In this document: positions 1 through 61,909 of the stretch, in pieces | Position numbering within the stretch: position 1 is the first letter of the stretch | How the letters are laid out: each line of letters begins with the position of its first letter | Assembly (NCBI RefSeq): GCF_030684315.1 | Contig: NC_081387.1 | Span: 18,231,309 to 18,295,308, forward strand | Direction of reading: 5' to 3' | DNA from: Stegostoma tigrinum | Lineage: Eukaryota | DNA length: 64,000 bases | Made by a program: the position numbers and the translations under genes | Notes under the pieces: model-generated | Database searches by the model: none | Seen by the model: the letters and a program-made list of their open reading frames with translations, nothing else | What the model was told of the DNA's origin: nothing

Positions 1-172
1 CTGAACATTCAGGGCAACATCCCCGCTGTGTTCAACCAGCACCTGCACAAACACTTGCATTTACGCACTGTTCCAGAGGAGATGCAGACAGGGGATGAAG
101 AATGTGGTGAAATCTCCCTATTCTCTGCTCTGTAAACTAACTCAATATTTCTTGGGCTGGTTGGGGAGGTGA
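1..172 (+). pseudogene. 3' remnant (TM7/helix 8) of a GPR139-like GPCR pseudogene, cut by the window edge
   Basis: After TGA at 2-4 the frame reads TFRATSPLCSTSTCTNTCIYALFQRRCRQGMKNVVKSPYSLLCKL. Near-identical to 61518 onward, including the premature stop. Confidence 0.85.
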
Positions 173-388
173 CAAGTGGTGTAATGATAGCGTCACTAAG
201 TCCCTAACCCAGGCCATGTCCTGAGATACAGTTTCAAATTCTCAGACAAATTTTCAAATGTCTCAGAGTGGGAGAAAAAGGCAGAGACATCAGTGGCACT
301 GCCTCTACTCCAGACGTTAGAAGTTCAAGTCCTACTCTCAGCATGGAACTCAGGATGGTGGGTTCTGAAGGTTTTCAAACAAGTTGAT

Positions 389-1190
389 CAAACTTGGCAG
401 ATGGAGTACAATGCTGATAAGTGTGAGGCCATCCATTTTGCAGCACGCTGCTGTGCAGAGGGACTTGGGAGTCCACGTGCATGAATCGCTAAAAGTAGGA
501 CTGCAGGTGCAGAAAGTCAATAAAAAGAGGCAAATGGAATTTTGTCTGTCATTGCTCTGGGGATGGAGTTTAAAAACAGGGAGGCTATGCTACAGCTGCA
601 GAGGATCCTGGTGAGGCCACACCTGGGGTACTGTGTGCAGTTTTCTTCTCCTTACTTGCGAAGGGGCAGACTCACACTGGAAGGGGAGCAGAGGAGATTC
701 ACTCGTTGATTTTAGAGTTGAGAGGGTTAGATTATGAAGAGAGCCTGAGTAGGCTGGGATTATACTCATTGGAATTCAGAAGAATGAAGTGTGATCTTCT
801 AGAAATGTTTAACATTGTGAAGAGAATAGATAAGGTGGGAGCAGGAAGGTTGTTTCCACTAGCAGGAGAAACTAGCACTTGAGGTCATAGCCTCAAAATA
901 AAGGGAAGCAGATGTAGGACTGAGGTCAGAAGGAACCTCTTCACCCAACGGGTTGTGAATCTGTGGAATTCCCTGCCAGTGAAGTGATTAAAGCTACCTC
1001 ACTGAATGTCTTTTTAAGGCAAGGCTAGATAATTTTTTGAACAGTAAGAGAATTGAGGGTGATGGTGAGTGGGCGGGTCAGTGGAGCTGAGTCTCAAAAA
1101 GATCAGCCATGATCTTATTGAATGGCAGGGCAGGATCGAGGGGCCAGATAGCCTACTGCTGCTCCTATTTCTTATGCTCTAATATTGTTA
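389..1190 (+). mobile_element. 5'-truncated CR1 LINE (RT C-terminus and 3' UTR)
   Basis: Fragments WQMEYNADKCEAIHF, LVRPHLGYCVQF, VVNLWNSLP. Flanked by TGAT. Paralogous empty site near 40728 (ggttgattgtcc). Confidence 0.85.
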
Positions 1191-2299
1191 TGATTGTCAG
1201 TCGGTACATCCTCCCAACCAATGCCACCAGCAGTTGGTCAGAGCAAGAGCTGTCCCCTCATCAGCTGAATCCTCAGCTACAACTGTCCTCCTGACAACAA
1301 CAAGCATGAGCAAGGTTCATGTTGTCACAGCTGCTCGATCTCACTGAGCAAACAGTGACATGTTGTGACATGAAACAACAAGCAGCAAGTAAGACAAGTC
1401 GCAGCTTTTCATTCTTGATGGAACTGCTTGGCAAAGGGACAGTGAGTGTCAATGCTATCTCGGTGCACTGACATCCCAGGAGCATTAGCACGAGGAGCAG
1501 GAGTTGGCCATTCATCCCCTCCTGTCCGCTCTGCCATTTTTCTGATCTCATCTCTGCCTCAACTCCACTTTTCTGCCCATTCTCTTAGCCTTTCAACCCA
1601 TCACTCATTAAAAGTCGGTTCATCTCTTTCTTATATTTACTCAATGTCCTTTTCACAGATTCATGACACTTTGAGAGAATTAGTTCTTCCTCATTTCTGT
1701 TTAAAATTTGCTACTCCCTGAACCTGAAACATTGGTCTCTTATTCTAGACTGTCGCAGCATGAGGAAACATCATCTCTCCGTCTACTTTGTCAATCCATC
1801 CTGCACTCAGATGTGCTTCACATGGATTTCCTCTCATTCTCTCTCGACTTTTTTGAGGACCGGCTGAAAGTGCTCAATATGTCGTCATAAGACGAACCTC
1901 TCATCTCTCATCTCTCAAATCAATCCAGTGAACCTCCTCTAAACTCCATCCAATGCAACTCCATCCCTCCTCCAGCCAGAGACCCAAAGCTGTACAGAAT
2001 GCTGCAGGTGGAAGCTCACAAATGTTTTGTACATTTGCCACAGAATGACACCATGTTTATGCTGCATTCCTTGAGGAGCAAATGCCAAAATTTCATTTAC
2101 TTTCTTTGTTAGAGGAAAGCGAATTGCCCTGAACAGTCCATTGTCTGCGTATCAATGTGCCCCAGTTTCAAGTCAAAGTGATTCAGCACATCCTTAGTGA
2201 CTGGCAGCCCTAAATGCCTTTCCCCTTATTCTGCAACTGTATCCATTGGAACAGCCAGGGAATACCTCCTTTCTCTTTCTATCCTTTGACTTAGCACCT

Positions 2300-2586
2300 T
2301 TACAATGTCGAAATGGACCCTTCAGCCCAACAAATCCACGCTGACTCCCACCCAGACCCAACTGTAACCAACTGAACCTACACATCCCTGAACACTGTGG
2401 GCAACTGAGCATGGCCAACCCATCATTGGACTCAGAGAGGAAACTGGAGATCTCGAAGGATACCAATGCAGACACAGGGAGAATGTGCTAACTCCATACG
2501 GACAGTCACCGAAGAGTGAAATTGAGCCTAGCTCGTGAGTTGCTGTGAGGCAGCAGTGCTAGCCACTGAACCAGCAAGCCACCCCC
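2300..2586 (-). mobile_element. HE1-like tRNA-derived SINE
   Basis: Reverse strand starts gggtggcttgctggttcagtggctagcactgctgcctcacagc, followed by cacattctccctgtgtctgc. Paralogous copies at 41545-41856 and 63815-64000. Confidence 0.7.
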
Positions 2587-5315: not shown

Positions 5316-5324
5316 CGGTGGATG

Positions 5325-7000
5325 ATTTAAGTCCCATCTCCATCCCTCAAGAAGGAATATTCAAAAAACTAGTGGGGCTAAAGGCCCTGATCTAAAAAAA
5401 AAGAGACAGATCCAGGGATACTGGATATATTGACTGTAATTTACTAAAATCCTTGGATTGTGAAGAACTACCAGATGTTTGGAAAACCGACAATGTGACA
5501 CTGCTTTTCCAAAAACAAGTGATGCAAAACATGGGTTAGTACCTCGACTGTCGAAAATATTTTGGAATCAATTGTTAAAGATGAGATTGTGTGTCATTTG
5601 GAAAATATTAATCTCATCAAGCAGAGTCAGCCCAGGCCCATGAAAGGAAAATTGTGACTGGCTAATTTAATGGAAAATTTGAAGGAAGCCTCAACTGGAA
5701 TGGACAGAGAGAAATCAGTAGACGTGTTTTAATTAGGCTTTGAGAAGGTGTTCACAGAATGTTGAATCATCAGAGCCCATGCTGTTGGACGTAACTTATT
5801 GGTCTGGACAGAGAATTTTCCAATGGCCCGGAGACAGTCAGTATTGATAAGCTATTCATTTACAGCATAGCCATCCATGGCCTTTGAGGTTCCAAAGGGA
5901 TCAGTGCTGGGATTGCTGCTGGTTGTTATAAATATTATCAACCTGGAGAAAAGGAATAAATGTACTGGAGCCAAATTTACAAATGACACAAAACACAGGT
6001 GGAAAAGCAGATTCTGCTCCTTCGATGCTGCTTGGCCTGCTGTGTTAATCCAGCTCGACACCTTGCTATCTCTTGTGAGAAGGTACCGCGGTTTACAGAG
6101 AAATATTGAAAGATGAAGTGAAACATTGTCAAAAGTCATGTGGTTAAATGTCACATTATTCATTTTGGAAGGTAGATCAAACGAACAGTTTTACTTAAAC
6201 AGAAAACAAAGGCTGCAGAAAGCTGGAAAACAAAGGGAGTTAAGGTATTTTGTACGAAACAGAGAAAGCAAGCACAAAACTGCAGCCAGCAACCAAGAAG
6301 ACTTATGGAATGTTGGTCCATCTTTCAAGAGGGTTGGAATATCAGTTTATGGAAGTCTTATTGCAACTGTCCATGGTGATGGTAAGACCACACTTGAAGT
6401 ATTGTGTGCAGTTTTGGCCTGCTATTGAGGAAAAGAAAAAAATAATAAAATCTTGGAACACAATTCAGACAAGGAGCATCAGGATGATTGCACATTTGGA
6501 GGGACTGTCTGATGAGCAAAAATTAAACAGATTGGGACTCTACTCACTGCAGCATTGGCGAATGAGAGGTGACCTCATTGAGACATTTTGGATTCTTTTG
6601 GGGCTTGACCAGGTAATTGCTGGACCAAGATTCCCCTCATGGGTGTGCTTTGGCTGTTTCTGCTTTCACCTGAAAATGGGACCACCAGCAGTTCTAAGAG
6701 AAATTCTCCTTCCGATCATTGTAATCCTTGAAATTTCTGAAAGAAAAAGCTGTTGTGATATTTTCTTGCCTGTTCTGTTCTGAAATGTCCCAGAGAGAAT
6801 AATCATAAAGGAGTAATGAATTAATTCTGAGATCAGGAGGAATTTGTTTTCTCAGTGGGTTGTGAATGTTTGGAGCTTCTTGCCACAGACCGAGCTGTGA
6901 AGGCAGAATCCTCACTGATATTTAACACTGACGCAGACAGATTCTTGATGGCAGCTGCAGAAATTTTAGACATTTCAAAATGACAACATTTTTGACAGAC
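5325..7000 (+). mobile_element. Ancient degenerate CR1 forming the GPCR intron
   Basis: Remnants VPKGSVLG, AKFTNDTK, VRPHLKYCVQFWP, MRGDLIETF. Same block recurs at ~17050-18580, ~28600-29930 and ~48520-50260. Confidence 0.75.
6676..6739 (+). pseudogene. Intronic degenerate copy of GPCR exon 1 without splice donor
   Basis: ctttcacctgaaaATG then MGPPAVLREILLPIIVILEIS (21 codons + G, same length as true exon 1), followed by AAAG instead of GTAAG. Confidence 0.75.
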
Positions 7001-7734: not shown

Positions 7735-8642
7735 CGAACCTGATGACAGTGTTGATTCTTTCTCGAGGTAATTGCGGCCTTTCCCAAGGAATCACTTGCT
7801 ACATGAAGGCCATGGCAACGGCAAATCTGATGGTCCTTGTCTTCACTGTGCTTGTGAGCCAGATTATCAGGAATCATTTCCCAGGCTCACCGTTGAACTA
7901 CACTCCCATCTGCCAACTCAATATTTTCCTGCAAGGGCTGAGCCTCCATCTCACCATCTGGTTCACCATAACCTTCACCTTTGACCGTTTTGTAGCAATT
8001 TGCTGCCACAAATTGAAGGCGAGATATTACACTGAAAGAACGGCCAATGTGGTCATATCCACTGTGAGTGTGCTTCACATTATAATCAACATTCCCTTAC
8101 CTTTTCGCTATGAGGCTGCTTATGTTGTGAACAGTGTACAGTGGGGCTGCCGAACCATCACCAGTTACCACACTTCACCGGGCTGGGCAGCTCACCGGTG
8201 GGTCACCAACATCTCAAACTCATTTGTTCCTATTCCCCTGCTCCTGTTGATGAATTCTCTCACCACCCAGCACATCCTAGTGGCCAGCAGAGCTCGGCGA
8301 GCCCTGAAGAGCAGCAGCAGTGCTGGTGCTGTGAAGATGGGCAGTGACCCCGAGTTGAAGAGCAGGAAGACCTCCATCGTTCTACTCTTTACCATCTCTG
8401 GATGCTTTGTGATACTTTCGGCGCCCATCACTGTGATCGATATGTGTGTCGGTGTCACCCAGACATTGAGATTCCAGGATTTGAACTCACTCTATTTGGC
8501 AATCAGGGTGACATTCCTGATGACATGCACCAACTCCTGCACAAACACTTGTATTTACGCACTGACCCAGAGAAGGTTCAGAGAGGAGATGAAGAATCTG
8601 GCAAAATCTCCTTATTCTTTGCTCTCTAAGCTACACAAGTAA
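7735..8642 (+). CDS. GPR139-like rhodopsin-class GPCR, exon 2 (intact ORF; exon 1 not found in window)
   Basis: Acceptor tttttcag|CGAAC. 7TM hallmarks ILSRGNCGLS, MATANLMVL, FTFDRFVAICC, NTCIYALTQRRFREE. No internal stops. Confidence 0.85.
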
Positions 8643-8664
8643 GTTACATTTACCGGGGAGCTCC

Positions 8665-16639: not shown

Positions 16640-16820
16640 GGTGATCACAGTGCTGAGTGTAAATACTGCTCAAGGATGTGAGATATTAACTTGTTTCTTA
16701 AAAAATGCTGAGATTAATGAAATCTTAATGAATGAAATTCAGTGGAGGATTGTCCTGCGCATAAATTTAACGTGTTTCAATGCATTGCCTCATTGTGACT
16801 GTACCGGCTTTCACCTGAAA
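16640..16820 (+). promoter_or_regulatory. Putative core promoter of GPCR gene 2
   Basis: CATAAAT at 16760, 61 nt before the ATG. GTAAATA at 16659 lies in a block conserved in all four promoters. Confidence 0.55.
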
Positions 16821-16884
16821 ATGGCACCAGTGTCACTTCCAATAGAAATTCTCTTTCCCATTCTTGCAATCTTTGGAATTCCTG
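16821..16884 (+). CDS. GPR139-like GPCR gene 2, coding exon 1 (MAPVSLPIEILFPILAIFGIP)
   Basis: aaaATGG start, ends CCTG|GTAAGT. Joins 23566 in phase 1 to give ...FGIP-ANLMTLLIL, completing TM1. Confidence 0.88.
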
Positions 16885-18417: not shown

Positions 18418-18493
18418 ATGGGACCACAACCTGTTCTAATAGAAATTCTAATAGAAATTCTCCTTCCCATCATTGTAATCCTTGAAATTCCTG
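18418..18493 (+). pseudogene. Intronic donor-less copy of exon 1 with an internal 12-nt duplication
   Basis: ATGGGACCACAACCTGTTCTAATAGAAATTCTAATAGAAATTCTCCTTCCC...CCTG|ATTA. Confidence 0.72.
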
Positions 18494-18581
18494 ATTAAAC
18501 CCTGTTGTGATATTTTTCTTGCATGTTCAGTCACGAAGTGTCCCAGAGAGAATATTCAAATAGTTAAGGAGTGATGAATTA

Positions 18582-21500
18582 TAGAACATAGAACATAGAA
18601 CAGTACAGCACAAAACAGGCCCTTCAGCCCACAATGTTGTGCCGACCATTGATCCTCTTGTATGCACCCTCAAATTTCTGTGACCATATGCATGTCCAGC
18701 AGTCTCTTAAATGACCCCAATGACCTTGCTTCCACAAGTGCTGCTGGCAATGCATTCCATGCTCTCACAACTCTCTGTGTCAAGAACCCGCGTCTGACAT
18801 CCCTTCTATACTTTTCACCAACCAGCTTAAAACTATGACCCCTCGTGCTACCCATTTCTGCCCTGGGAGATAGTCTCTGGCTATCAACTCTATCTATGCC
18901 TCTCATTATCTTGTGTACCTCAATTAGGTCCCCTCTCCTCCTCCTTTTCTCAAATGAAAAGAGACCGAGCTCAGTCAACCTCTCTTCATAAGATAAGCCC
19001 TCCAGTCCAGGCAGCACCCTGGTAAACCTCCTCTGAACCCTCACCAAAGCATCCACATCTTTCCTATAATAGGGCGACCAGAACTGGACGCAGTATTCCA
19101 AGTGCAGTCTAACCAAAGTTTTATAGAGCTGCAACAAGATTTCATGACTCTTAAACTCAATCCCCCTGTTAATGAAAGCCAAAACACCATATGCTGTCTT
19201 AACAACCCTGTCCACTTGGGTGGCCATTTTAAGTGATCTATGTATCTGCGCACCAAGATCCCTCTGTTCCTCCACACTGCCAAGAATCCTATCCCTAATC
19301 CTGTACTCAGCTTTCAAATTCGACCTTCCAAAATGCATCACCTCGCATTTATCCAGGTTGAACTCCATCTGCCACCTCTCAGCCCACCTCTGCATCCTGT
19401 CAATGTCCCGTTGCAGCCTTCAACAGCCCTCTATACTGTCAACGACACCTCCGACCATTGTGTCGTCTGCAAACTTGCTGACCCATCCTTCAATCCCCTC
19501 GTCCAAGTCATTAATAAAAATTACAAACAGTTGAGGCCCAAGGACAGAGTCCTGTTGAACCCCACTCACCACTGACTTCCAGGCAGAATATGTTCCTTCT
19601 ACTACCACTCGCTGTCTTCTGCTGGGAAGCCAATTCTGTATCCAGACAGCTAAGTTCCCCTGTATCCCATTCCTCCTGACCTTCTGAATGAGCCTACCAT
19701 GGGGAACCTTTTCATATGCCTTGCTGAAGTCCACATACACCACATCCACAGCTCGACCCTCATCAACTTTTCTAGTCACATCCTCAAAAAACTCGATAAG
19801 TTTTGTGAGGCATGACCTACCCCTCACAAAGCCGTGTTGACTGTATTTGATCAAGCCATGCTCTTCCAGATGGTCATAAATCCTATCCCTCAGAATCCTT
19901 TCTCACACCTTGCAGACGACAAACGTGAGACTTACTGGTCTGTAATTGCCGGGGATTTCCCTATTTCCTTTCTAACAGAGAAGAATTACATTTGCCTCTC
20001 TCCAGTCCTCAGGTACGACTCCAGAGGAGAGCGAGGATGCAAAGATCTTCGCAAGTGGCGAAGCAATTGCATTTCTCTCTTCCCAAAGCAGCCGAGGACA
20101 AATCTTGTCCAGGCCTGGCGACTTGTCAATCTTAATGTTTGACAAAATTTTCAGCACATCAGCTTCCTCTATCTCTATCCATTCCAGCATGCACACCTGC
20201 TCTTCAAAGGTTTCATTCACTGCAAATTTCGTTTCTTTCATAAAGACAGCAGCAAATAACTCATTTAGGGCTTCCCCTACCTCCTCAGACTCCACGCACA
20301 AGTTCCCTATGCTATCCCTGATCGGCCCTACTCTTTCTTTGACCATTCTCTTATTCCTCACATAAGTTTAAAATGCCTTTGTGTTTTCCCTAATTCGTTC
20401 TGGCAAGCCTTTCTCGTGCCCCCTCCTGGCTCTCCTCAGACCATTTTTGAGCTCCTTCCTTGCCTGCGTGTAATCCTCTCTAGCTGAACTTGACCCTAGC
20501 TTCCTCCACCTTATGTAAGCTACCTTCTTCCTTTTCACAAGAAGCTCCACCGCTCTCGTCATCCAAGGTTCCTTTATCATACCCCGTCTTGCCTGTCTCA
20601 GAGGGACATATTTAATCATCACTCGCAACAACTGTTCCTTAAACAGTCTCCACATGTCTGTAGTTCCCTGACCATGGAACAATTGCTCCCAGCCCATGCT
20701 TCCTAACTCATGTCTAATCACGTCATAGTTTCCTCTTCCCCAATTAAATATCCTCCCATTTTGCCTAATCCTCTCCTTCTCCATAGCTTTGTAGATTGTG
20801 AGGCAGTTATGGTCACTATCACCAAAATGCTCTCCCACCACAAGATCTGATACCTGTCCCGGCTCGTTTCCGAGCACCAAGTCTAGAATGGCCTCTCCCT
20901 TCGTTGACCTGTCAACGTACTGCGTTAGGAAACCCTCCTGAACACACTTTACAAAAACAGCTCCATTCAAATCTTCTGCTCGAAGGAGGTTCCAATCAAT
21001 ATTAGGAAAGTTAAAGTCACCCATTACAACAACCCTACTGCGTCCACACTTTTCCAAAATCTGTCGACCTATGCTTTCTTCAATCTCCCTGCTGCTATTG
21101 GGGGGCCTGTAGTAAACCCCTAACGAGGTGACTACTCCCTTGCTGTTCCTAATTTCCACCCATACTGACTCAGTAGGCAGATCTTCCTCGACAAAGGAAG
21201 CTTCTGTAGCTGTGATACCCTCTCTGATTAGTCGTGCTACACCCCCTCCTCTTTATCCCCCCTCCCTATTCTTTTTAAATGTTCTAAACCCTGGAACATC
21301 CAGCAACCATTCCTGCCCCTGAGAAACTCATGTCTCCATTATGGCCAAAACATCATAGCACCAGGTACTGATCCATGCTCTAAGTTCATCACTTTTATTC
21401 CCAATACTCCTTGCATTAAAGCAAACACACTTTAACCGATCCCTTGGTTCCTTCCCACTTGCTGGTCTACCTCTTGCTACTGCCTCACCTGCATCAACTT

Positions 21501-22686
21501 TCACCTCTGGTATACAGGTCAGGTTCCCACCCCCCTGCCATACTAGTTTAAACCCTCTCAAACGACACGAGGAAACCTTCCTCCCAGGACATGGGTCCCC
21601 TTCCAGTTCAGATGCAACCCGTCCTTCTTGTACAGGTCCCACTTTCCCCAGAAGGCACCCCAATTATATACATATCCGAAGCCCTCCCTCCTACACCAGC
21701 TGCGTAGCCACGTATTAGGCTGCACCCACTCCCTGTTCCTCGCCTCGCTATCTCGTGGCATCGGTAGTAAACTAGAGAACACGACTCTGTTTGTCCTGGT
21801 CTGCAGGTTCCATCCTAACTCCCTGAAATCACTTTTTATATCCTCTATCCTATTTCTGGCTATATCATTTTTGGCCAATATGTAACACAATTTCTGGCTG
21901 TTCGCCCTCCCCTTTTAGAGCCTTATACACCCGATCAGAGATGTCCTGGACCCTGGCACCAGGGAGGCAACATTCCTGCCGGGAATCCCGATCCTGACCA
22001 CAAAATCTCCTGTCAATTCCCCTAACTATCTAGTCCCCTACCACGAGTACTTTTCTATTCTGCCCCCTGCCCTTCTTTGCCACAGTGTCAGGCTCAGTGC
22101 CAGAGAACTGACTATTATGGCTTTCCTCTGGTAGGTCAACCCCCCCAGCAGTATCCAAAACGGTATACTTATCGCTGAGGGGAATGCCCACAGGGGATCT
22201 CTGCACTGTCTGTCTGTTCCCTATCCTCCCCCGAACTGTAACCCATCTATCCATGTCCTGAGCCTTAGGAGTGACCAACTCCCGGTAACTGCTCTCAATT
22301 ACCCCCTCTGCCTCCCGAATGATCCGTAGTTCATCCAGCTCCAGCTCCATTTCCCTAACACGGTTTTCAAGGGGCTGTAGTTGGGTGCACTTCCCGCAGA
22401 TGTAGCCAGCGGAGACGTGTGCCACGTCTCCCAACTGCCACATTCTGCAGGAGGAGCAAGAAACTGCCCGCGCATCTATACCCCACTTATCTGAACACCC
22501 ACTCAGTACTAAAGTAGAAAGCTTACTTCAAGTAATAATAACTTACTTCAAGTAATAATAACAAACTAATAACAAACTAATATTCAATAGAGAAAGTTTA
22601 GAAGGAACCTTACCTTATTAACTAGGTTAGAGGAGGAGAGCGGGTGGGAAACACTACAGTTGTAGAGTCTTGGGTTGAGACACCTA
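18582..22686 (-). mobile_element. Near full-length CR1 LINE (ORF1 zinc finger + SGNH esterase; ORF2 APE + RT), disabled
   Basis: CSSC..CGKC, VLVVGD, DGLHLN, FNARSI, VVMGDFNFP, QHGFVRGRSCLT, KFADDT. (TTCTATG)n tail. AATTA TSD at 18577-18581 and 22687-22691. Empty sites at ~6819 and ~50103. Confidence 0.95.
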
Positions 22687-23565: not shown

Positions 23566-24467
23566 CGAACCTCATGACACTGTTGATTCTTTCTCAAGGC
23601 AAGTGTGGCCTTTCCCAAGGAGTCACTTGCTACATGAGGGCCATGGCAACGGCAGATTTAATTGTACTTGTCTTCATTGTGATTGTGACTGAGATCGTCG
23701 TGAATCATTTCCCAGACTCACTGATTAAATACACTTCCATGTGCCAACTCAATGCTTTCCTGCAAGGGCTGAGCCTCCAGCTCTCCATCTGGTTCACCAT
23801 AGCCTTCACCTTCGACCGCTTTGTCGCAATTTGCTGCCACAGGTTGAAGGCGAGATATTGCACTGAAAGAACGGCCAATGTGGTCATATCCACTGTGAGC
23901 GTGCTTAACATTATAATCAACATTCCCTTACCTTTTCGCTGTGAGGCTGCTTATGTTGTGAACAGTGTACAGTGGGGCTGCCATACCATCACCAGTTACC
24001 ACACTTCACCGGGCTGGGCAGCTCACCAGTGGGTCACCAACATCTCAACCATGATTCTTCCTATTCCCCTGCTCCTGTTGTTGAATTCTCTCACTGCCCG
24101 GCACATACTAGGGGCCAGCAGAGCTCGCCGAGCCCTGAAGTGCAGTGGTGGTGCTGGGAAGCTGGGCAGAGACCCCGAGCTGAATAGCAGGAGGACCTCC
24201 ATCATTCTGCTCTTCACCATCTCTGGGTGCTTCGTGGTGCTGTCGATGCCCATCACTGTGATCCATATCTGTGTCGGTGTCACCCAGACAGTGGCATTTG
24301 AAGGATCAAACTCACTCTATTTGGCAATCAGGGCGACATTTCTGATGATGTGTACCAGCTCCTGCACAAACACATGTGTTTATGCATTGACCCAGAGGAG
24401 GTTCAGAGAGGAGATGAAGAAACTGGTCAAATCTCCCTGTTCTATTCTCTGTAAGCTAAATATGTAA
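23566..24467 (+). CDS. GPR139-like GPCR gene 2, exon 2 (spliced product 321 aa)
   Basis: Acceptor ttttcag|CGAAC. ILSQGKCGLS, MATADL, DRFVAICC, NTCVYALTQRRFREE. Intact to TAA. Confidence 0.9.
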
Positions 24468-28376: not shown

Positions 28377-29940
28377 ATGCGATCACAAGAGCTTCCAATA
28401 GAAATTCTCTATCCCATGCTTGTAATCTTTGGAATTCCTGGTAAGTAACGAGGAGAGACTGTAACATTTTTCTGACCTGTTTTATTTTGAATTTCTTCTC
28501 TTCAATTTGTCCGAACGCCCCCAAAAGGATGTCCTGCTGATTGCGGAGTTCGCCCGTTCCTCATTCCATCGGTTTTGCTCTGAGCTCAGCTAGTCCTGTC
28601 CCAGCTAACTTTGTTGGAAGAAAATATTTTTAAACTCAGTAAAAAAAAACAGAAGAATTGAACAAATATTTTGCATCACATTTTGTTACAGACGATACTT
28701 TGAACATTCCATTAATTGTAAAGAATGTAGTTGAGGAATTAAGACCTTTCACCATCACTGAGGAAAGGGTATTTGGTAAACTAGTGGGGTTAAAGTTGCT
28801 TCCTGCTGTGATGGCTTACAACCCCGGATTGTAAAACAGGTCGCTACACAGGTCGCGGATGCTATCTCTGTAATTTACAAAAGTCCTTGGATATTGGAGA
28901 AATGCCAGAGATTTGGAAAACTGACAATGTGAAACTCCTATTAAAAAAAAAGCGAGGCAAATTATCTGTGACAAACTCTATTGTTGAAAAAGGATTGGAA
29001 TTAATTAATAAGAGTAGGATAGAGAACATTGAGAAAATATTCTTCTCATCAAACAAAGTCAGTACAGCTTCATGAAGTGGAATTGTGTCTGACTAATTTA
29101 TGTGAATTCTTTGCAGAAGTCTCAACTAAAATGCATAGAAGGGAATCAATGGATGTGTTGTATTGGTTTTTGAGAAGGCGTTCAGTAAGGTACCTCACAA
29201 AAGATTGTGCCATTAGATCAAAACTCATGGTGATGGAGGTTTCTTCTTGGGACCCATGACCTGTGGGGTTCCGCTGGGATCAGTGGTGGTATTGTTACTC
29301 TCTACAATATATATTCAATGCTTGGAGGAAGGGAGTGAATGTACTGCAGCTGAATTAGCAGATGTCACCAAATACAGAGGCAAAGGTACATTGTGAGACG
29401 GATGTCAGTCGTTTACAGAGAGATATTGGCAAGTCAAGTAAGTGGTCAAAAAGTTGCTAAATGGTGTATAATTGTGGGAAAATATAAATTCATTCATTTT
29501 GGACGGTAGAACAAAAGAACAGATTTACTTAAATGGTGAAAAGCTGCAGAAAGCTGAAACACAAAGGTACGTGGAGAATGAGCACAAAAAAAAGAAAGCT
29601 AGCATACAGGTACAGCCAGTAATCAGTAAGGCACCTGGAATGTTAGCCTCTTATTTCAAGGGAGTTGAAGTGTAAAAGTAGGGAAGTCTTACTGCAAATG
29701 TATAATGGTGGGAATGAGATCACAGCTGGAGTACTGTGAGCAGTTTCGGTCTGTTATTGAAGGAAAGTAAAGTTCAGAGAAGGATCATCAGAAGGATGAT
29801 CACAGGCAGCGGGGGACTGCCGTGTGCACAGCAATTAAAGTTTGAGCCTCAACACACTGGAGTTTGGAACAGTGAGAGGAGATGTCATTTAGACGTATAG
29901 ATTTCTTAACGGGATCAACAGGATACATGCTGAGAGGACG

Positions 29941-30133: not shown

Positions 30134-30191
30134 ATGCTGAGAGGACGTTTCCACGAATGGGACAGCCTTTTGATTGTTTCTGCTTTGTCCT

Positions 30192-30942: not shown

Positions 30943-32587
30943 TCACATTCTTCTCAACTCGAAAGAGCTTAATCCCAGGACTCAGGCAAGTGAATCCTCA
31001 CCAGGTTGCTCCTCAGGCAATAATATTTCTTTACTGGAAATAGTGTAACCACGTGGTGCAATGTGACAAACAAGTGGATGTACTGATCATGGAATCCCAT
31101 TCTGTATCATTTCCATGGCAGAGACAAAGTGTTAGCAATGAGATTACACTGTTTCCCATCGTTGTTCAAGTCTGGAATTTCCAGCAACACCATACAGTGT
31201 TGTTATTCCTCCCTTTGGAATCCCATACTTCATCTGTCTGCGTCTCTGATGGATACTTTGATACATCTCACGATCTGATTTTTTTTTTCAGTGAACCTGA
31301 GGACAGAGTTGATTCTTTCCCAAGGGAAGTGCGGCCTTTCCAAAGGAATCACTTCCTACATTAGAGCCATGGCAATGGCAGATCTGATAGTCCTTTTCTT
31401 CAATGTGATTGTGGGTCAAATCATCAGGCATCACTTCTCAAGCTCGCTGTTGAGCTACACTCCCATCTGCCGGCTTGATGCTTTCCTGCAAGGACTGAGC
31501 CTGCAAGTCTCCATCTGGTTCACCATAGTCTTCACTTTTGAGCGCTTTGTTGCAATTTGCTGCAACAGACTGAAGACAAGGTACTGCACTAAAAGAACTG
31601 CTACAGTGGTCATATCCATTGTGAGAGCTCTTAACATTTTGGTCAACATTCCCTTGCCTTTTCTGCATCAGCCCCATTACATCGTGAATAATGTACAGTG
31701 GGGCTGCCGCACTGTTGCCGATTATCACACTTCACCAGTCTGGGCAGCTCGCCGGATGATCAACATCTCAAACTCATTTCTTCCTATTCCTCTGCTGCTG
31801 CTGTTGAATTCTCTCACCACCCAACATATTATAGTGGCCAGCAGAGCTCACTGGGCCCTGAAGAGCTGTAGCAGTGTGACTGGAGAGAAAGGGAAAGATC
31901 CCGAGCTGAAGAGTAGGAAGACCTCCATCATTCTGCTCTTTGTCATCTCCGCCTTCCTTGTGGTCCTGTCGGCTCCCATCACAATCCTTCACAGCTGTAT
32001 TGGCTTTCCCCAGGTGGTGGATTAGCAAGGTTCAACCTCACGCTATTTAGCACTCAGGGTGACGCCCTGCTGTTGTGCACCAGCACTTGCACAAACACTT
32101 GTATTTACACATTGCTCCAGAGGAGATTCAGAGAACAGATGAAGAATGCGATAAAATCTCACTACTCACTGCTCTGCAAGCGCTGATGGCCAAGGTGACT
32201 AGTGATGTAATGATAACGTTCCCGAGTCACTGATCCAGACATTGTCCTGGGATTCAAGGTGAAATTACACCATGCCAAGTGGAGAAATTTCCATTCAATA
32301 AAAACCGATCCACAGGGTGACATTTTGCCAATAGTAATTGTCAAATCTCTCCACATAATGGAAAATATGCATTCTTAATGCGCCTTTTTGAAAATAATTC
32401 TCAGCGCCACACATATTATGGTTTTAACAGACCATGCGGTTTCTGAATTTCCCAAATGATTTGAACAATTTGAAATCGGGGGAGAAAACCTGTCAGATAT
32501 AGATGTGGAGATTAGGATGATTCATTTCAGTGGCAATGAACATACCTATGATCCTGAAGGAGTGGGCTGAATACCGATTTGCTTCAC

Positions 32588-48129: not shown

Positions 48130-48303
48130 GTGATCACAGGGCTCAGTGTAAATACTGCTCAAGGATGTGAGATGTTAACTTGTTTGTTAAAAATGCCGAG
48201 TTTAATTAAATCTGTTCAATCTTTCAGTGGAGGATTGACTAGTATAAATTGAGCATGTTTCAATGCATTGCTTCATTGTGACTGTTCCGACTTTCACCTG
48301 AAA
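48130..48303 (+). promoter_or_regulatory. Putative core promoter of GPCR gene 4
   Basis: TATAAAT at 48243 (61 nt before ATG) and GTAAATA at 48148. Confidence 0.6.
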
Positions 48304-48367
48304 ATGCCTCCAGGGTCACTTCCAATAGAAATTCTCTTTCCCATTCTTGCAATCTTTGGAATTCCTG
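48304..48367 (+). CDS. GPR139-like GPCR gene 4, coding exon 1 (MPPGSLPIEILFPILAIFGIP)
   Basis: aaaATG start, CCTG|GTAAGT donor, phase-1 join to 50988. Confidence 0.88.
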
Positions 48368-49955
48368 GTAAGTCGGTAAAAACCGCTGTGACGTTTTTCT
48401 TGCCTGTTCGGTTTTCAATTGAGTCTCTGCAATTTGGAGCTTCACCAATCAAATGAATCTCCTCCTGATTATGGAGCTTGCCTGCTCTTCATTACCATCA
48501 GTTTCAGTTTGAGAGCAGTTAGTCCTGCCTGGGTTGGAAACAATTGTGCTTATCTTAAATAAAGAATACAAGAAAATGACAGAGGACTTCAACAAATATT
48601 TTGCATCAGTCCTTCCGATGTAAGATACTTTGAGCCTCTTACCATTGCTACAGAGTATGGTGCATACTTTAATTCCCATCTGCATTGCTGAAGAATTACG
48701 CATGCTTCGAAAAATTAATGGAGCTAAAGCAAAATATGTTGCTGGGCCCGATCCAAAAAGAGAGAGCTGCAGAGATACCAGATGTGTTTGTTGTAATTTA
48801 GTAAAATCATTGGATGTGGAGATTTATCAGAGGTTTGGTAAACTGACAATGTGTCACTGTTATTCCAAAAGAGAGGAAGGCAAAACATGGGTTACTGTAC
48901 AGATTGTTGAAAATATATTGGAATCAATTAGTGAAGATGAGATAGCGTACCACTTGGAATGTATTAATCTTATCAAGCAGTCAGCACAGCGACATGAAAG
49001 GAAAATTGTGACTGACTAATTTGTTGGAAATTTTCAAGGAAATCTCATCTGGGTGGCTCTGGGGGAATCATTAGATGTGTTTTAATTAGGATTTGTGAAG
49101 GTGCTCAACAATGTTCCTCACAGAAAGTTGAGTCATAACAGCCCATGTTCTTGGAGGTAGCTTATTGGTATGTATGGAGAATTGTCCAAGAGTCAGTGCA
49201 AGTTGATGATGTATTCATTTAGTTTAGTCAAGCATGACTTGTGGGGTCAGTGTTGGGATTGCTCCTGTTTACAATACGTATTAACAACTTGGAGGAAGAA
49301 ATGAATGTACAGTAGCTAAATTTGCTGATGATATCAAACACAGATGGAAAAGCAGATTGTGCAAAGGCACAATGTGTTCCCAAAAGATATTGATAGGTTA
49401 AACGAATCATTGTCAAATGGAGAGTGATGTGAAAATATTATACGTCATTTATTTTGGAGGGTTGAACAAAAGGACAGAGTTTTATTTGAACAGAAAAAAG
49501 CTAGAAAGCAGGAACACAAAGGGATTTGAAGTACTTGCGCATGAAACATCGAAAGCTAGCACAAAAGTGCAACCAGTAACCAGGAAGGCGAGTGGAATGT
49601 TGGTCCATATTTCAAGGGGTTTGGAGTATCAGTGTCAGGAAGCCTTACTGCACTGTATATGGTGCTGGTGAGGCCACGCCTGGAGTACTGTGTACAGTTT
49701 TCAGCCTGTTATTGAGGAAAAGAAAAAAAAAAATCAGAAGCAATTCAGACAAGGAACATCAGCATGATCACAAGTGTGGATGAACTGTGTTGTGAGCCAA
49801 AATTACACAGATTGGGACTCCACTCACTGTAGCGTAGAAGAATGAGTGGTGAGCTTATTGAGACGTATTGGATTCTTAAGGAGCTTGACCAGGTAAATGC
49901 TGGAGGATCATTCCCCTCATGGGAGTTCTTTGGCTGTTTCTGCTTTCATCTGAAA

Positions 49956-50019
49956 ATTGGACTACAAGCTATTCTAATAGAAATTCTCCTTCCCATCATT
50001 GTAATCCTTGAAATTCCTG
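49956..50019 (+). pseudogene. Intronic donor-less copy of exon 1 (ATG changed to ATT)
   Basis: IGLQAILIEILLPIIVILEIP followed by CCTG|ATAA. Confidence 0.72.
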
Positions 50020-50987
50020 ATAAAACTTGTTGTGACATTTTTTCCTGCCTGTTCACTTATGAAATGTCCCAGAGAGAATATTCAAATAGTAAAGGAGTGA
50101 TCAATTAATTCTGAGATGAGGAGGAATTTGTTCCCTGAGTGGCTAGTGAGTGTTTGGAACTTCTTGCCACAGACAGAGCTGTGGAGGCAGAATCCTCACT
50201 TAATGTTTCACACTGAGATACACCGATTCCCGATGGCAGTGGCAGACATTTCTCACATTTCAAAATGTCAACTTTTTTGATGGAAGTAAACCACAGAAGA
50301 GGAGAATGGGAACATATGAATGAGAAGCTGGAATGGGCCAATTGGCGCTTTGAAATGCTTCCACCTTTCAGCAGGACCATGATTTGAGTGATCTCCACTG
50401 TCCTGCCTGCATTCCATAGCCCTTGAATCCCTTGTGTGTCCAAAATGTATCTGACTCAGTCTTCCAGATTCAGCCACAACCATGTGTCGGGGAACAGGAT
50501 TCCATATAATAACCAACGTCTGAGAGAGTAGAAATTTCCTTATCCCTATTTGAAAGGGGGAATTGCTTATTCTGAAACTGTGTCCTCAATTTTAATCTCC
50601 TCCCTCAAGAGAAAACCACTTCCAGGTGTTACCCTTTATCCAGTTTCCTCAAGTTCTTAAATGTTTCAATGAGATCACCTCACATCCTTCTGAATTTGAT
50701 TGGATACAGGCATAAACTTTCTTCACAAAACAAGATCGTAATCCACTTGTGAGGCAGGTAAATATTCTTTGATCTGTTTCTCAATGAGACAAAAAAGTTC
50801 TCCTGAAATTTAGAGACCAAATGGTGCAAAATCACCTTCTAATTAATTCCAAAACATAGACAATGCGTTGCAGGCCGCACAATGTATCATTGTTATACAA
50901 GTCTCTAATTACCAGCAGCATCCCAGAGACTTGCAATTCCTCACCTCATCTGTGCACATATCTGCTGATTGTTCTTTCTGTTTTCAG

Positions 50988-51895
50988 CGAACCTGATGAC
51001 ACTGTTGATTCTTTCTCAAGGGAAGTGTGGCCTTTCCCAAGGAATCACTTGCTACATGAGGGCCATGGCAACGGCAGATTTGATGGTACTTGTCTTCAAC
51101 GTGATTGTGAATGAGATAATCATGAATCATTTCCCAGGCTCGCCGATGAACTACACTTCCATCTGCCGACTCAATACTTTCCTGCAAGGGCTGAGCCTCC
51201 ATCTCTCCATCTGGTTCACCATAGCCTTCACCTTTGACCGCTTTGCAGTAATTTGCTGCCACAGATTGAAGGTGAGGTATTGCACTGAAAGAACGGCCAA
51301 TGTGGTCATATCCACAGTGAGCGTGCTTAACATTATAATTAACATTCCCTTACCTTTTCGCTATGAGGCTGCTTATGTTGTGAACAGTGTACAGTGGGGC
51401 TGCCGTACCATCACTAGTTATCACACTTCACCAGGCTGGGCAGCTCACCGGTGGGTCACCAACATCTCAAACATTTTGCTTCCTATTCCCCTGCTCCTGT
51501 TGTTGAATTCTCTCACTGCCCGGCACATCCTAGTGGCCAGCAGAGCTCGCCGAGCCCTGAAGAGCAGCAGCGGTGGTGGTGCTGGGAAGCTGGGCAGAGA
51601 CCCCGAGCTGAAGAGCAGGAGGACGTCCATCATTCTGCTCTTCACCATCTCTGGGTGTTTCATACTGCTGTCGCTGCCCATCACTGTGATCCATATCTGT
51701 GTCGGTGTCACCCAGACAGTGGCATTCCATGGATCAAACTCACTGTATTTGGCAATCAGGGCAACATTTCTGATGATGTGCACCAGCTCCTGCACAAACA
51801 CATGTATTTATGCACTGACCCAGAGGAGGTTCAGAGAGGAGATGAAGAAACTGGTCAAATCTCCCTGTTCTATTCTCTGTAAGCTACATATGTAA
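50988..51895 (+). CDS. GPR139-like GPCR gene 4, exon 2 (spliced product 323 aa)
   Basis: Acceptor ttttcag|CGAAC. Intact ORF with DRFAVICC and NTCIYALTQRRFREE. Confidence 0.9.
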
Positions 51896-54227: not shown

Positions 54228-54520
54228 GTGGTAATGTCACGGGAAATTCAATGAACAAATAACATAGGTTCCTATATTAATGGTCTGGGGTCAGAGATTC
54301 CAATCGCCAAATGGCAGTTGTTGTCATTTGAATTCAATAAAAATATACCCTAATTGCAAAGAGATGAGTACTTCTGACCATTAGGTTCACTGATCTCCTT
54401 TAGGTATCTGGTACAGCCTACATTTGACCCAGATTGGCAGCAATAGGGCTGACTCTAAAAATGGCCATCAAGATAGTCTGTCCATGGACAATTTGTGATA
54501 GGTAATAATTCTGGGCCAGC
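54228..54520 (+). mobile_element. Old tRNA-headed SINE-like repeat, free-standing copy
   Basis: gtggtaatgtcac...atttgaattcaataaaa...ggttcactgatctcctttagg...gactctaaaaatggcc. Confidence 0.55.
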
Positions 54521-56759: not shown

Positions 56760-56940
56760 TGTCATTCTTTCCTTCTTTCTCTGTGTCACTATCGTGCTCT
56801 CCCATTGCTTCACTATGCTGGATTCCACTCTCTCTGTCTCTCTCTTTCTTTCTGTCTTCCTTTCTCTCAATCTTTCTCTGCATCTCTATGTCAATATCTC
56901 TCTCTCTCTCTCACAGTGTCAACCCACTCTCTCTCTCCAT
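56760..56940. repeat. CT-rich low-complexity/microsatellite tract
   Basis: (CT)n runs. A similar tract lies at ~53060-53265. Confidence 0.8.
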
Positions 56941-58519: not shown

Positions 58520-59608
58520 GATGGCTGTCTGAAAGAAGGCAAAGAGTTGGGATAAAAGGCTCTTTTTCGGAATGGCAACCGGTGACGAATGGTGTCCCAC
58601 AGGGTTCAGTGTTGGGTCCACAGCTGTTCACCTTATATATTAATGATCTGGATGAAGGGACTGGGGGCATTCTGGCGAATTTTGCCGATCATACGAAGAG
58701 AGTGGACAGGCAGGCGATACTGAGGAGGTGGGGAAGCTGCAGAAAGATATACACAGTTCAAGAGAGTGGTCCAGGAAATGGCTGATGAAATTCAATGTGA
58801 GTAAATGTGAAGCTTTGCACTTTGGAAAAAAGAATACAGGCATGGACTATTTTCTAAACGGTGAGAAAATTCACAAATCACAAGTACAAAAGGATCTGGG
58901 AGTGTTGGTCCAGGATTCTCTAAAGGTTAACTTGCAGGTAGAGTCCGTAATTAAGAAAGCGAATGTAATGTTGTCGTTTATCTCAAGAGGGTTGGAATAT
59001 AAAAGCAGCGATGTGCTTCTGAGGCTTTATAAGGCTCCAGTTAGGCCCCATGTAGAATACTGTGTCAATTTTGGGCCCCACACCTCAGGAAGGACATACT
59101 AGCCCTGGAGCATGTCCAGCAGTGATTCACACGGATGATCCCTGGAATGGTACGTTTAACATATGATGAACGGCTAAGGATCCTGGGATTGTATTCATTA
59201 CAGTTGAGAAGGTTGAGGGGAGATCTAATAGAAACTTACAAGATAATGTCTGGTTTAGAAGGGGTGGACGCTAGGAAGTTATTTACGTTAGGCAGGGAGA
59301 CTAGGACCCGTGGGCACAGCCTTAAAATTAGAGGGGGTAAATTTAAAACTGAAATGAGATGACATTTCTTCAGCCAGAGAGTGGTGGGCTTGTGGAATTC
59401 ATTGCTGAAGAGTGCAGTGGAGGCCGGGACGTTGGATGCCTTCAAGGCAGAGATCGACAAATTCTTGATCTCAAAAGGAAACAAGGGCTACGGGAGAGTG
59501 CAGGGAAGTGGTGTTGAAATGCCCATCAGCCATGATTAAAATGGCGGAGTGGGCATGATGGGCCGAATGGCCTTACTTTCACCCTATATCTTATGGTCTT
59601 ATGGTCTT
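58520..59608 (+). mobile_element. 5'-truncated CR1 LINE with 6-bp TSD
   Basis: GVPQGSVLGPQLFTLYINDL, WLMKFNVSKCEALHFG. (TCTTATGG)n tail. TSD ATTTAA at 58514-58519 and 59609-59614. Empty paralogous site at ~26587. Confidence 0.92.
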
Positions 59609-61079
59609 ATTTAATGATTCCCTCTTTAATTCGTCTCGACATAAAGAGATTCGATTGAAGCTGTCTGTTGAGCACCCATTCACATTTGTTCTTCCACCAG
59701 AGAGGATCAGTGGAATCATCAGTCAACATTACTGACTGATTTGATGTTCTTTTCTTTCTTCACACTCTTGGTTTGGGGAATTAAGAAAGTCCTCTTGTTT
59801 TGAAATATCAATAAAATGCAAACCCAATATTCTTCTGATTCTTTGTATCAACAGATGAGAGAGAATATGCCCTGAACAACACACTTTTGATTTTAGTGCC
59901 CATTTCCTTCCGAGATACACAGTTTTTGGACGATCCATCTGCCTTTCCCATAACTGCAATTGGTATTCCACTTAAAAACTAACAATCAGGTTCTGTAAAC
60001 CCAGCATTATTTCAATGGATCCAATCCTTTGTATCATTTTAAGTCGGGGGCTTTCAGCTTCATGAATTGAACTTGAATTGACACTTGATAAAGCTGGCTC
60101 ATAGGGGATATTTCCTCATGTGGGGCAATCGTGATCTGTCACGGTTTTCACAGAAGTGACAGCAGGATGAAAGGATGGATGAGGAGAAATTTCTTTCCAC
60201 AAGAGTCATCATTCGGTAGAATGTACAGAGGATGCTGGGGAATTGAGAAACTTTGCAGAAAGGGTGGAGAGATTTTTAATTTATAACGGCTTAAGGTGTT
60301 ATGGTCTTCCTGGTGTCTAAGGCAAAATACAAAGTTCTATGATAAGTTGACAGTCATGGACTTTATCGGACTTTCATTCTAAATTACAGCAGTGCAGAGG
60401 CCCCTTACAGAAAAGTATTAAGAAAGGAAAAAATATCAGAATGAACATAGGAATGGTCGAGGGACAGAATGCTTCTTATGCAGAGATCTCTTGGGAAAAA
60501 GACGTATTCCTGGAACTTAAAACTACAGGTGTACGCTGATGAGAACAATTTTCATCGACAATGTCAGCAGCAAATATAAATTAAACCAATGTAATATAAA
60601 ATGCCCTGACTTAAACACATTTGAATAAAATTTCCTTCTAATGACAAACATTTTAATTTGTATGTGTATGTATAATAATCCTCATGGTGTATAGCATCGA
60701 AATCATGACAGGAAGATTTTTTCTGCTGGAAAATGGAAAATGTCTCTTTAAGAATGCTTTTATCATTAGTTACTGAATGTACATATTATAGGTAGGAACA
60801 GAAGGGCAATGTTAGAAAGAAGAAACTTGGGCTAATGTTGCACAGTTGTAGGATTCCTCTCTCTGGGCTACAAAGCCTGGGTTGGAATCCCATTATCTTC
60901 AGATCCATGTCTCAGCAAAGGTTGATTGAAAAGGGTGAAACTTGATTCTTACTATCTACCTCCTGGGACACGTGATGCCCTGCACCCGACTAGGGTCAGG
61001 CTGAAAGAATCAGATCTCTCGTGGCTCTCTCAGAAGTCAGATCTCAAGAGCATGAAAGGCACTGGCCCACGTTCTTTCG

Positions 61080-61260
61080 GGATCACAGAGTTCATTGTAA
61101 ATCCTGCTCAATGCCAGGACATGTTAACTTCTGTTTTTTTTTTCAAAACATTGAGCCTCATGAGACCTGTTCACGCTCCCATGAGACCATTAGCTTCTGT
61201 ATAAATTGAGTTCTATTCAACATATAGCCTCATTTTGACTGTTTCTGTGTTCAGCCAAAA
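61080..61260 (+). promoter_or_regulatory. Putative core promoter of GPCR locus 5
   Basis: TATAAAT at 61200 (61 nt before ATG), Inr-like TCATTTT, conserved upstream block. Confidence 0.55.
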
Positions 61261-61660
61261 ATGGGATCAGAAGAGCTTCCAATAGAAATTCTCTACCCAA
61301 TTCTTGCAATCAACAGGACTCATTGGGCCCTGAAGAGCAGCAGCAGTGATGCTGGAGAAACAGGGAGAGATCCTGAACAGAAGAGCAGGAAGACCACCAC
61401 CATTCTGCTCTTTGTCATTTCCAGCTACTCCGTGGTCCAGTCGGAGCCCATCACCACCCTTCACATCTGTATTGGCTTTACCCGGGTGGTGGATTTCCAA
61501 GGTTCAAACTCGCTCTACTGAGCATTCAGGGCAACGTCCCCGCTGTGTTGAACCAGCACCTGCACAAACACTTGCATTTACGCACTGTTCCAGAGGAGAT
61601 GCAGACAGGGGATGAAGAATGTGATGAAATCTCCCTATTCTCTGCTCTGTAAACTAACTC
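61261..61660 (+). pseudogene. Internally deleted GPR139-like GPCR: exon 1 fused in frame to ICL3-TM6 (86-aa ORF), TM7 remnant after the stop
   Basis: MGSEELPIEILYPILAI|NRTHWALKSSSS..KSRKTTTILLFVISS..DFQGSNSLY*, then TCTNTCIYALFQRRCRQ. Confidence 0.88.
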
Positions 61661-61909
61661 AATATTTGAATTTCTTGGGCTTGTTGGGGAGGTGACAACC
61701 AGTGTAATGAACGCGTCACTAAGTCCCTAACCCAGGCCATGTCCTGAGATACAGTTTCAAAATCTCAGACAAATTTTCAAATGTCTCAGAGTGTGAGAAA
61801 AAAAGAGTCATCAGTGGCACTGCCTCTACGACAGGCGTTAGATGTTCAAGTCCTACTCTCAGCATGTAACTAAGGATGGTGAGTTCTGAAGGTTTTCAAA
61901 CAAGTTGAT

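Follow-up and report, generated by a model that had tools for sequence, protein, structure and literature searches.

The 64-kb window, by which we mean the whole stretch of DNA analysed, carries six receptor loci, all on the plus strand. When the open exon 2 ORFs were used as tblastn queries, matches were found at 11-139, 7710-8639, 23547-24464, 31279-32180, 50969-51892 and 61300-61656 (all +). These represent two intact genes, one promoterless exon 2 and three pseudogenes, in agreement with the first-pass annotation, which had described six co-oriented paralogous 7TM loci. PF00001 (7tm_1) was the sole Pfam match in all four long ORFs scanned (E 2e-17 to 4e-13) and scored 50-64 bits against a cut-off of 30.5, which places them in class A. 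No match to the OR, TAAR, V1R, V2R or T2R families was found in any of the four. The loci are called E', A, B, C, D and E in order along the window, and their features are as follows.

1..2465, +, segmental duplicate; partner 61518-64000, 93% identity
2..139, +, pseudogene E' tail (TM7-helix 8), block-duplicate of E
6651..6787, +, dead internal copy of exon 1; lacks a TATA box and a GT donor; LINE 3' fragment ahead of it
7735..8642, +, locus A open exon 2, without promoter or exon 1
16760..16766, +, locus B TATA-like box CATAAAT, 61 nt 5' of ATG
16821..16884, +, locus B coding exon 1, 64 nt, GTAAG donor
18446..18531, +, dead exon-1 copy in the intron of B
18582..22686, -, broken LINE (endonuclease and RT) inserted in the intron of B, not in D
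23566..24467, +, locus B exon 2; intact gene, 321 aa
28316..28322, +, locus C TATA box, 61 nt 5' of ATG
28377..28440, +, locus C exon 1
31292..32186, +, locus C exon 2, pseudogene; stop at 32023-32025, frameshift near 32065
48243..48249, +, locus D TATA box, 61 nt 5' of ATG
48304..48367, +, locus D coding exon 1
49931..50066, +, dead exon-1 copy in the intron of D
50988..51895, +, locus D exon 2; intact gene, 323 aa
61200..61206, +, locus E TATA box, 61 nt 5' of ATG
61261..61656, +, locus E pseudogene; TM5-TM7 part of exon 2, stops from 61519
61518..64000, +, segmental duplicate; partner 1-2465

Loci B (16821-16884 + 23566-24467) and D (48304-48367 + 50988-51895) are intact two-exon genes with the same organization: a 64-nt coding exon 1 with a GTAAG donor, a TTCAG acceptor, and a phase-1 intron that interrupts TM1. 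The N-termini are very short, as first reported, with only 22 residues ahead of N1.50. The compact TATA promoters claimed earlier were also found: a TATA-like hexamer lies exactly 61 nt 5' of the ATG in each of the four loci that have a promoter (TATAAAT in C, D and E; CATAAAT in B). The O/E motif typical of OR promoters was absent from all four upstream 1-kb regions, and the homeodomain motifs in these regions did not occupy positions common to the loci. Four sequencing runs mapped on 47500-62000 gave coverage in all 30 bins, repeats included, and behave like genomic DNA from one sample. No joint between an exon 1 and an exon 2 was among the 15 read joints listed for this region (366 more exist). 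Read depth over D exon 2 was higher than over its flanks, although depth here is not a measure of copy number.

The flanks of locus A align to the D region minus the block that carries D exon 1. Locus A also carries D2.50N and has lost a conserved ICL2 Cys, and it is likely a young pseudogene. Use of its internal exon-1 copy by locus A was considered and ruled out, as this copy has neither a TATA box nor a GT at the usual donor site. Together with those in the introns of B and D, this copy brings the dead exon-1 copies in the window to three, none of them recorded in the first-pass annotation. In locus E, a deletion near 61311 has fused the truncated exon 1 to TM5 of exon 2 with the reading frame kept. 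The first and sixth loci are block-duplicates of each other, a point also absent from that annotation, and the TGA at 2-4 in E' is the first stop of E. An assembly artefact was ruled out as the origin of the paired end blocks, as their 93% identity would be too low for two haplotypes. Copies arise and disappear here through duplication, both in tandem and in blocks, and through LINE insertions, deletions and decay by nonsense mutation.

Values of dN/dS between window copies ranged from 0.39 to 0.62 (0.49-0.74 with kappa 2.5). A ratio near 1 had been named at first pass as one sign against its reading; the intervals fell below 1 in 11 of the 12 comparisons of window copies. The ratios of non-synonymous to synonymous private changes in A (21:6) and B (15:4) were near-neutral. 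The ratio in D (6:6) did not differ significantly from neutrality (p=0.09), nor from the ratios in A and B (p=0.13). Locus B may be in decay, judging from its 15N:4S private changes (not significant), and locus D is the best candidate for a working gene. The birth-and-death evolution proposed earlier is borne out by tandem intact and dead copies, block duplicates, lineage-specific duplicates and purifying selection on older branches.

Many homologues were retrieved from each side of the elasmobranchs, in 21 species of sharks and rays, most of them auto-named 'probable GPR139' in RefSeq. With locus D as the query, 750 clusters were retrieved at E<=1e-3; among the best 120 of these, 119 were named elasmobranch and one fell in a skate cluster. 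Heptranchias perlo represents at least 68 distinct 90% clusters among the matches listed, by a hand count over two listings (34, then 34 more). No holocephalan was among the named matches in the homologue listings. Across 172 shark proteins the signalling motifs were nearly invariant (D3.49/R3.50 172/172, Y7.53 172/172, C3.25 171/172, ECL2 Cys 170/172), and the NPxxY motif reads NTxxY in 167. A seven-helix fold was modelled for homologue P0001 (92% to D) with a pLDDT of 85 and a TM of about 0.72 to peptide receptors. Foldseek placed GPR139 at rank 22 among near-equal peptide receptors, so that the fold search was uninformative on subfamily. We found no description of the family in the openly accessible literature that was searched, and no match to it in 13 of the 24 whale shark supplementary files. 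In these respects, a large family with no published description found, the earlier claim of an uncharacterised repertoire holds.

Among solved structures, GPR139 was the closest by sequence (E 1e-23, 87 bits; runner-up 1e-14, 57.5 bits), consistent with the affinity to the GPR139/142 group noted earlier; OR, TAAR, V1R, V2R and T2R were absent among the 31 and 60 solved-structure matches listed. The likeness to GPR139 extends to an alignable TM1-helix 8 and a short N-terminus. The shark family, however, is multi-copy where GPR139 is single-copy, and it keeps Cys3.25 and the ECL2 Cys, whereas the TM3 and ECL2 cysteines are described as missing in GPR139 (PMC5430874), as can also be seen in the profile alignment. 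GPR139 and GPR142 are orphan receptors that L-Trp and L-Phe activate. The Trp/Phe site of GPR139 consists of F109, H187, W241 and N271, plus R244; these positions, assigned by eye from the profile alignment to GPR139, are occupied by G/T/S/F and I in the window's subfamily. At least three of the four site residues were present in just 4 of 172 shark proteins, and a basic residue at 6.51 in one. The family profile scored amphibian proteins at 237 bits, coelacanth at 215, teleost at 200 and 142, amphioxus at 153 and human GPR139 at 87. Judged by the cysteine motif, the Trp/Phe-site residues and this ranking, the family does not qualify as orthologous to GPR139.

The closest bony-vertebrate relative is an amphibian and sturgeon gene also named 'probable GPR139' (for example XP_031757816.1, XP_069092602.1 and RXM35349.1), which forms the sister group. 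In trees built without GPR139 and GPR142 sequences, neither being among the 150 best representatives, sharks and this gene formed one clade with support of 100/100 (SH-aLRT 99 in the other tree), and the family joined chordate GPR139-like proteins against protostome-type receptors on a 100/100 branch. Subfamilies extended over sharks and rays with high tree support. The coelacanth and teleost relatives P0218, P0225 and P0247 fell outside the clade; they are probably counterparts of the GPR210A/B of fish and coelacanth described in PMC6504862, and the words shark, cartilag- and chondr- are absent from the main text of that paper. The sister gene was found in 20 amphibian clusters, each with a different species name, and one sturgeon, so it is apparently single-copy (about one per species). 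It has in common with the sharks the TM3-ICL2 and ICL3-TM6 motifs, the disulfide cysteines and the short N-terminus. Unlike the shark family, it has about one copy per species and an invariant GPR139-like pocket that holds three of the four Trp/Phe-site residues (F3.33, W6.48 and N7.39) plus a basic 6.51 in 20/20 amphibians. No functional characterisation of it was found in the literature searched.

The predicted ligand-binding pocket was the most variable part of the helices among shark paralogues and the most conserved among amphibian orthologues. Entropy over 38 shark representatives was 2.31 at 32 pocket sites, compared to 1.64 at 74 other outer-half sites and 0.97 at 100 inner-half sites (p=6e-5). 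The corresponding values for 20 amphibians were 0.10 versus 0.48 and 0.50 (p=8e-5). Both effects peaked at the correct register and were lost at shifts of -2, -1 and +2, with a weak trace at +1 (p=0.04). Within the window's subfamily, pocket entropy was not below that of other outer sites (0.77 vs 0.79), yet N2.57, Q3.32, G3.33, Q3.37, H5.38, I6.51 and C7.43 were present in all 12 shark and ray proteins. The polar pocket residues of this subfamily form a set peculiar to it, which hardly varies between sharks and rays. The pattern of chemoreceptors, variable among paralogues and conserved among orthologues, was therefore found, its orthologue side being supplied by the amphibians and some of the polar subfamily sites. 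Since the intracellular face is conserved while the pocket varies, the receptors look like a repertoire in which ligand input differs between copies and the signalling side stays constant. Because of the pocket hypervariability, the conserved intracellular face and the dN/dS below 1, the reading as an uncharacterised repertoire is strengthened.

Taken together, these sequence comparisons lead us to a tentative preference, nearly an even call, for an outward-facing chemosensory repertoire, with small polar molecules or short peptides that differ between copies as the predicted ligands. The GPR139/142/FMRFamide-receptor group would have supplied an ancestral sensor of aromatic amino acids or peptides, which would have multiplied in cartilaginous fishes, with the pocket tuned anew in each subfamily. 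The G-protein output would be common to the subfamilies and, by analogy to GPR139, Gq/11-like. Expression might be in the nose, taste buds or solitary chemosensory cells, this being the least certain step. That the family is a further shark and ray chemosensory family, in which each species has dozens to hundreds of genes, of independent origin from the GPR139/FMRFamide-receptor branch, is possible but somewhat doubtful. Amino-acid sensing, proposed earlier by analogy to GPR139, is not supported, as the window's subfamily has none of the four Trp/Phe residues and no basic 6.51. Nor can the short N-terminus serve as a sensory sign, for the single-copy amphibian orthologue has it as well. A catshark top-50 brain-plus-olfactory list (PMC11979771) contains no GPCR, which counts against a sensory role, but it contains no V2R either and is weak evidence for that reason.

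Counting against the sensory reading, hypervariable pockets would be expected just as much in an immune or peptide-hormone repertoire. The missing O/E motif, the homeodomain motifs at unshared positions, the subfamily's pocket entropy and the private-change ratios of A, B and D also weigh against it. Receptors of leukocytes or epithelial sentinel cells that detect microbial or damage peptides, for which formyl-peptide receptors and MRGPRs are the model, would fit the birth-and-death pattern and the pocket variability equally, and we regard such an immune or barrier repertoire as unlikely but a serious contender. Among 30 long or fused homologue models scanned, single ones carried MHC class I, integrin alpha-X-like, uromodulin D8C, hemopexin or trypsin domains, and weak Ig/TRIM domains were also seen; genes of these kinds are probably neighbours of the family, and the chimeric models with MHC class I, integrin alpha-X-like and uromodulin-like domains suggest neighbourhoods of immune type. 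With hundreds of copies, however, assorted neighbours are expected, and a sodium-channel fusion was among the same models. MAS1 and its relatives are reported as lacking in sharks in the whale shark paper (PMC8455134), and this leaves their role vacant there. The 22 residues ahead of N1.50 do not form the long acidic N-terminus of chemokine-receptor type, and the nearest characterised relatives are neural or endocrine (PMC12208981, PMC5430874); both points speak against an immune role.

Another rival reading is internal sensing of gut nutrients, metabolites or endogenous peptides, as by GPR139 and GPR142, with a few ancient subfamilies functional and the rest copy-number churn. The match to GPR139, the single-copy sister gene with its GPR139-like site and the seven pocket residues kept in 12/12 proteins all agree with this, but the near absence of GPR139 site residues and of a basic 6.51 from the 172 shark proteins does not, and dozens of deep subfamilies with differing pockets would exceed the usual need of endogenous ligands; we consider it distinctly unlikely. 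A further rival is mostly neutral amplification in duplication-prone, repeat-rich DNA, with most copies being dying passengers that have no repertoire function. Four of the six window loci are dead or promoterless, an already-dead gene was duplicated (E and E' have a stop in common) and the private changes of A and B look neutral. This explanation is already weakened, and in our judgement improbable, given the dN/dS intervals below 1, the near-invariant signalling motifs over 172 proteins, the well-supported subfamilies that extend over sharks and rays, and variability specific to the pocket register.

Whatever its function, a family of which a single shark has at least 68 distinct members under the automatic label 'probable GPR139' fits poorly with the published view of cartilaginous fishes as poor in GPCRs (PMC8455134) and in class A chemoreceptors. 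The catshark has only 5-8 genes each of OR, ORA and TAAR (PMC6368271). If the chemosensory reading is correct, the family could outnumber the known OR, TAAR, ORA and possibly V2R genes of sharks and rays, overturning the idea of a tiny smell-receptor set; an independently evolved vertebrate chemoreceptor family would be added and the puzzle of shark smell would become directly testable. If the receptors are instead immune, the oldest jawed lineage would have a repertoire for innate recognition that has so far been overlooked. As a single-copy gene, the Xenopus orthologue provides a laboratory handle on the ancestral ligand.

With OR, TAAR, ORA/V1R, V2R, T2R and invertebrate Srw receptors, the shark family has in common clustering, high turnover, a variable pocket and a constant intracellular face; unlike them, it has two-exon genes and no O/E motif. 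One of its neighbours in the ESM Atlas, at 0.96, is a mollusc 'Chemosensory receptor A'/Srw cluster, which is a lead only. Among Aplysia candidate chemoreceptors, Srw was best-scoring for 29 of 90 (PMC3963977).

The six paralogous loci in the window belong to an expansion that is real: an enlarged class A receptor repertoire of a lineage undescribed in the literature searched, subscription journals excepted. The whale shark study describes cartilaginous fishes as comparatively poor in GPCRs (PMC8455134). A search with locus D, an intact gene of the window, returned 750 clusters at E<=1e-3, and of the best 120 of the 750, 119 bear shark or ray names while the remaining one lies in a skate cluster. 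The named matches listed span at least 21 elasmobranch species and include no chimaera proteins. Heptranchias perlo alone represents at least 68 distinct 90% clusters in a hand count of the matches listed; this is a lower bound, although mis-modelled genes might make it a little too high. With a profile, 1,741 matches were obtained, some possibly not members; 140 representatives at 50% identity reach E<=1e-30. For most members the automatic name is 'probable G-protein coupled receptor 139'. RefSeq misnames others as melatonin, mu-opioid, C5a, cephalotocin, vasotocin, capa, P2Y6 or allatostatin receptor-like, and studies of those receptors in sharks can be misled by these names.

When a 35-member profile was compared with solved structures, human GPR139 was the best match (87 bits, E 1e-23; runner-up 57.5 bits). 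Relatives scoring above GPR139 by profile were found in amphibians (237 bits), coelacanth (215), teleosts (200 and 142) and amphioxus (153). In a 37-protein mixture-model tree, built without GPR139 and GPR142, the elasmobranch family and an amphibian/sturgeon gene formed a clade with support of 100/100, elasmobranch monophyly received 91/78, and the coelacanth and teleost proteins fell outside; a quick tree of 62 rows had the same shape. Those outlying proteins are probably the GPR210 subtypes described in PMC6504862. PMC5430874 reports that GPR139 lacks Cys3.25 and the ECL2 cysteine, whereas the shark family retains both (171/172 and 170/172 proteins, respectively). Judged by motif, then, the family is not GPR139.

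The amphibian query, in a word-limited search, returned 20 clusters, no two of them named for the same species of frog, salamander or caecilian, and a single protein from sturgeon. This suggests that each species has one copy. This receptor (homologue proteins P0209 and P0282-P0301) is apparently single-copy, strongly conserved and auto-named GPR139 yet distinct, with a GPR139-like pocket. D2.50N is present in 20/20 of the amphibian proteins, and a 340-aa frog member lies on a 1,110-base contig that looks like a spliced transcript.

To compare ligand pockets, helix numbering was set from motif anchors and 32 standard class A pocket positions were analysed. From 172 shark proteins 290-345 aa long, 38 representatives of <70% identity were drawn; their mean entropy was 2.31 for pocket positions, 1.64 for the other sites of the outer half and 0.97 for the intracellular half (pocket vs outer, p=6e-5). 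The corresponding values for 20 amphibian orthologues were 0.10, 0.48 and 0.50 (p=8e-5). Both effects vanished when the pocket set was shifted by -2, -1 or +2, and a shift of +1 left a weak trace. Four residues of GPR139 are required for Trp/Phe activation, according to PMC5430874. The amphibian gene shares three of the four and has a basic residue at 6.51, where GPR139 has R244; F3.33, W6.48, N7.39 and Lys 6.51 occur in 20/20 amphibian proteins. At least three of the four are retained in only 4/172 shark proteins, and the subfamily to which the window loci belong has Gly, Thr, Ser and Phe at these positions and Ile at the R244 equivalent. Within that subfamily seven pocket sites, mostly polar, are identical in 12/12 shark and ray proteins, although the pocket as a whole does not have lower entropy than other outer sites (0.77 vs 0.79).

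As read from sequence, variable pockets joined to a common signalling face are the architecture of a detector repertoire. The ancestor would have been a GPR139-like sensor, which amphibians would have retained unaltered as one gene; in elasmobranchs it may have been amplified and its pockets re-tuned, with the signalling face left common to the copies. External chemosensation is the role we tentatively favour, because of repertoire size and the pocket pattern, because the known class A chemoreceptor set of the catshark is small (PMC6368271) and because molluscs offer precedents of chemoreceptor-like expansions near the same receptor branch (PMC3963977 and PMC8514136; a mollusc neighbour in the ESM Atlas is a lead only). 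Several observations are neutral for a sensory role or count against it: no O/E promoter motif was found in 4/4 upstream 1-kb regions, the short N-terminus also occurs in the single-copy amphibian gene, and fused gene models hint that MHC class I, integrin and uromodulin-like genes lie nearby. Immune sensing is an unlikely role for the family, sensing of internal signals somewhat less likely again, and neutral amplification improbable. The sequencing runs listed for the locus included no RNA run, and those aligned to it behave like DNA.

The fused models (P0431, P0206, P0243, P0133, P0222 and P0190) join members to MHC class I (skate), integrin alpha-X-like, uromodulin D8C, hemopexin, trypsin and sodium-channel domains, and are probably annotation fusions with neighbouring genes. 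Human GPR139 itself adjoins GP2/UMOD.

The window is repeat-rich vertebrate DNA with about 43% GC, and its nearest homologues come from carpet sharks. By tblastn all six loci lie on the + strand, and 7tm_1 was the sole Pfam domain matched by four long ORFs. The two intact genes are:

16821-16884 + 23566-24467, + strand, locus B, two exons, 321 aa
48304-48367 + 50988-51895, + strand, locus D, two exons, 323 aa

In both, the splice sites are canonical and the intron, of phase 1, interrupts TM1; a Stegostoma protein matches D at 92% identity. Locus A is an open exon 2 from which the block with promoter and exon 1 is gone. Locus C carries one stop and one frameshift, and in locus E, which contains stops, a truncated exon 1 is joined in frame to TM5. 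The tail at 2-139 is a copy of E. The first-pass annotation had counted two intact loci, one orphan exon and three dead loci, and that tally was correct. A TATA-like box lies exactly 61 nt 5' of the ATG in 4/4 promoters, among which about 500 nt of upstream sequence can be aligned.

Pairwise dN/dS in exon 2 was 0.39-0.62 (0.49-0.74 when the transition bias was set to 2.5). Of 12 bootstrap intervals, 11 excluded 1. Private changes, in the region in common with C, were 21:6 (N:S) in A, 15:4 in B and 6:6 in D, a hint of relaxation in A, perhaps also in B, and of constraint on D, although these differences were not significant (p 0.09-0.13). In locus A, D2.50 and a conserved cysteine of ICL2 are both changed; its nearest Stegostoma protein (90%) also has D2.50N, in a gene model without a normal exon 1. 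The private amino-acid changes of B are grouped near the outer end of TM2, ECL1, ECL2 and TM5 pocket sites, which could reflect either relaxation or re-tuning.

Positions 1-2465 match 61518-64000 at 93% identity, and one stop codon is common to E and the copy of E, so the block was duplicated after its gene had died. Mobile elements and dead exon copies in the window are:

18582-22686, - strand, broken LINE (endonuclease and RT), near full-length, 4.1 kb, in the B intron and absent from the D intron
6651-6787, dead second exon-1 copy 5' of exon 2 of A
18446-18531, dead second exon-1 copy 5' of exon 2 of B
49931-50066, dead second exon-1 copy 5' of exon 2 of D
32571-33860, retroelement with a weak GIY-YIG match (E 8e-4, under the curated cut-off); partial copies at 11524-12609, 25174-25690 and 52596-52866

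The C intron contains, at 30191-30474, a stretch that matches the end of the LINE (18582-18865) at 95% identity. The dead exon-1 copies are fused behind a LINE 3' fragment and have neither TATA nor donor; their duplication is older than the A/B/D split. The retroelement at 32571-33860 is probably Penelope-type, and several of its copies lie just 3' of receptor exons.
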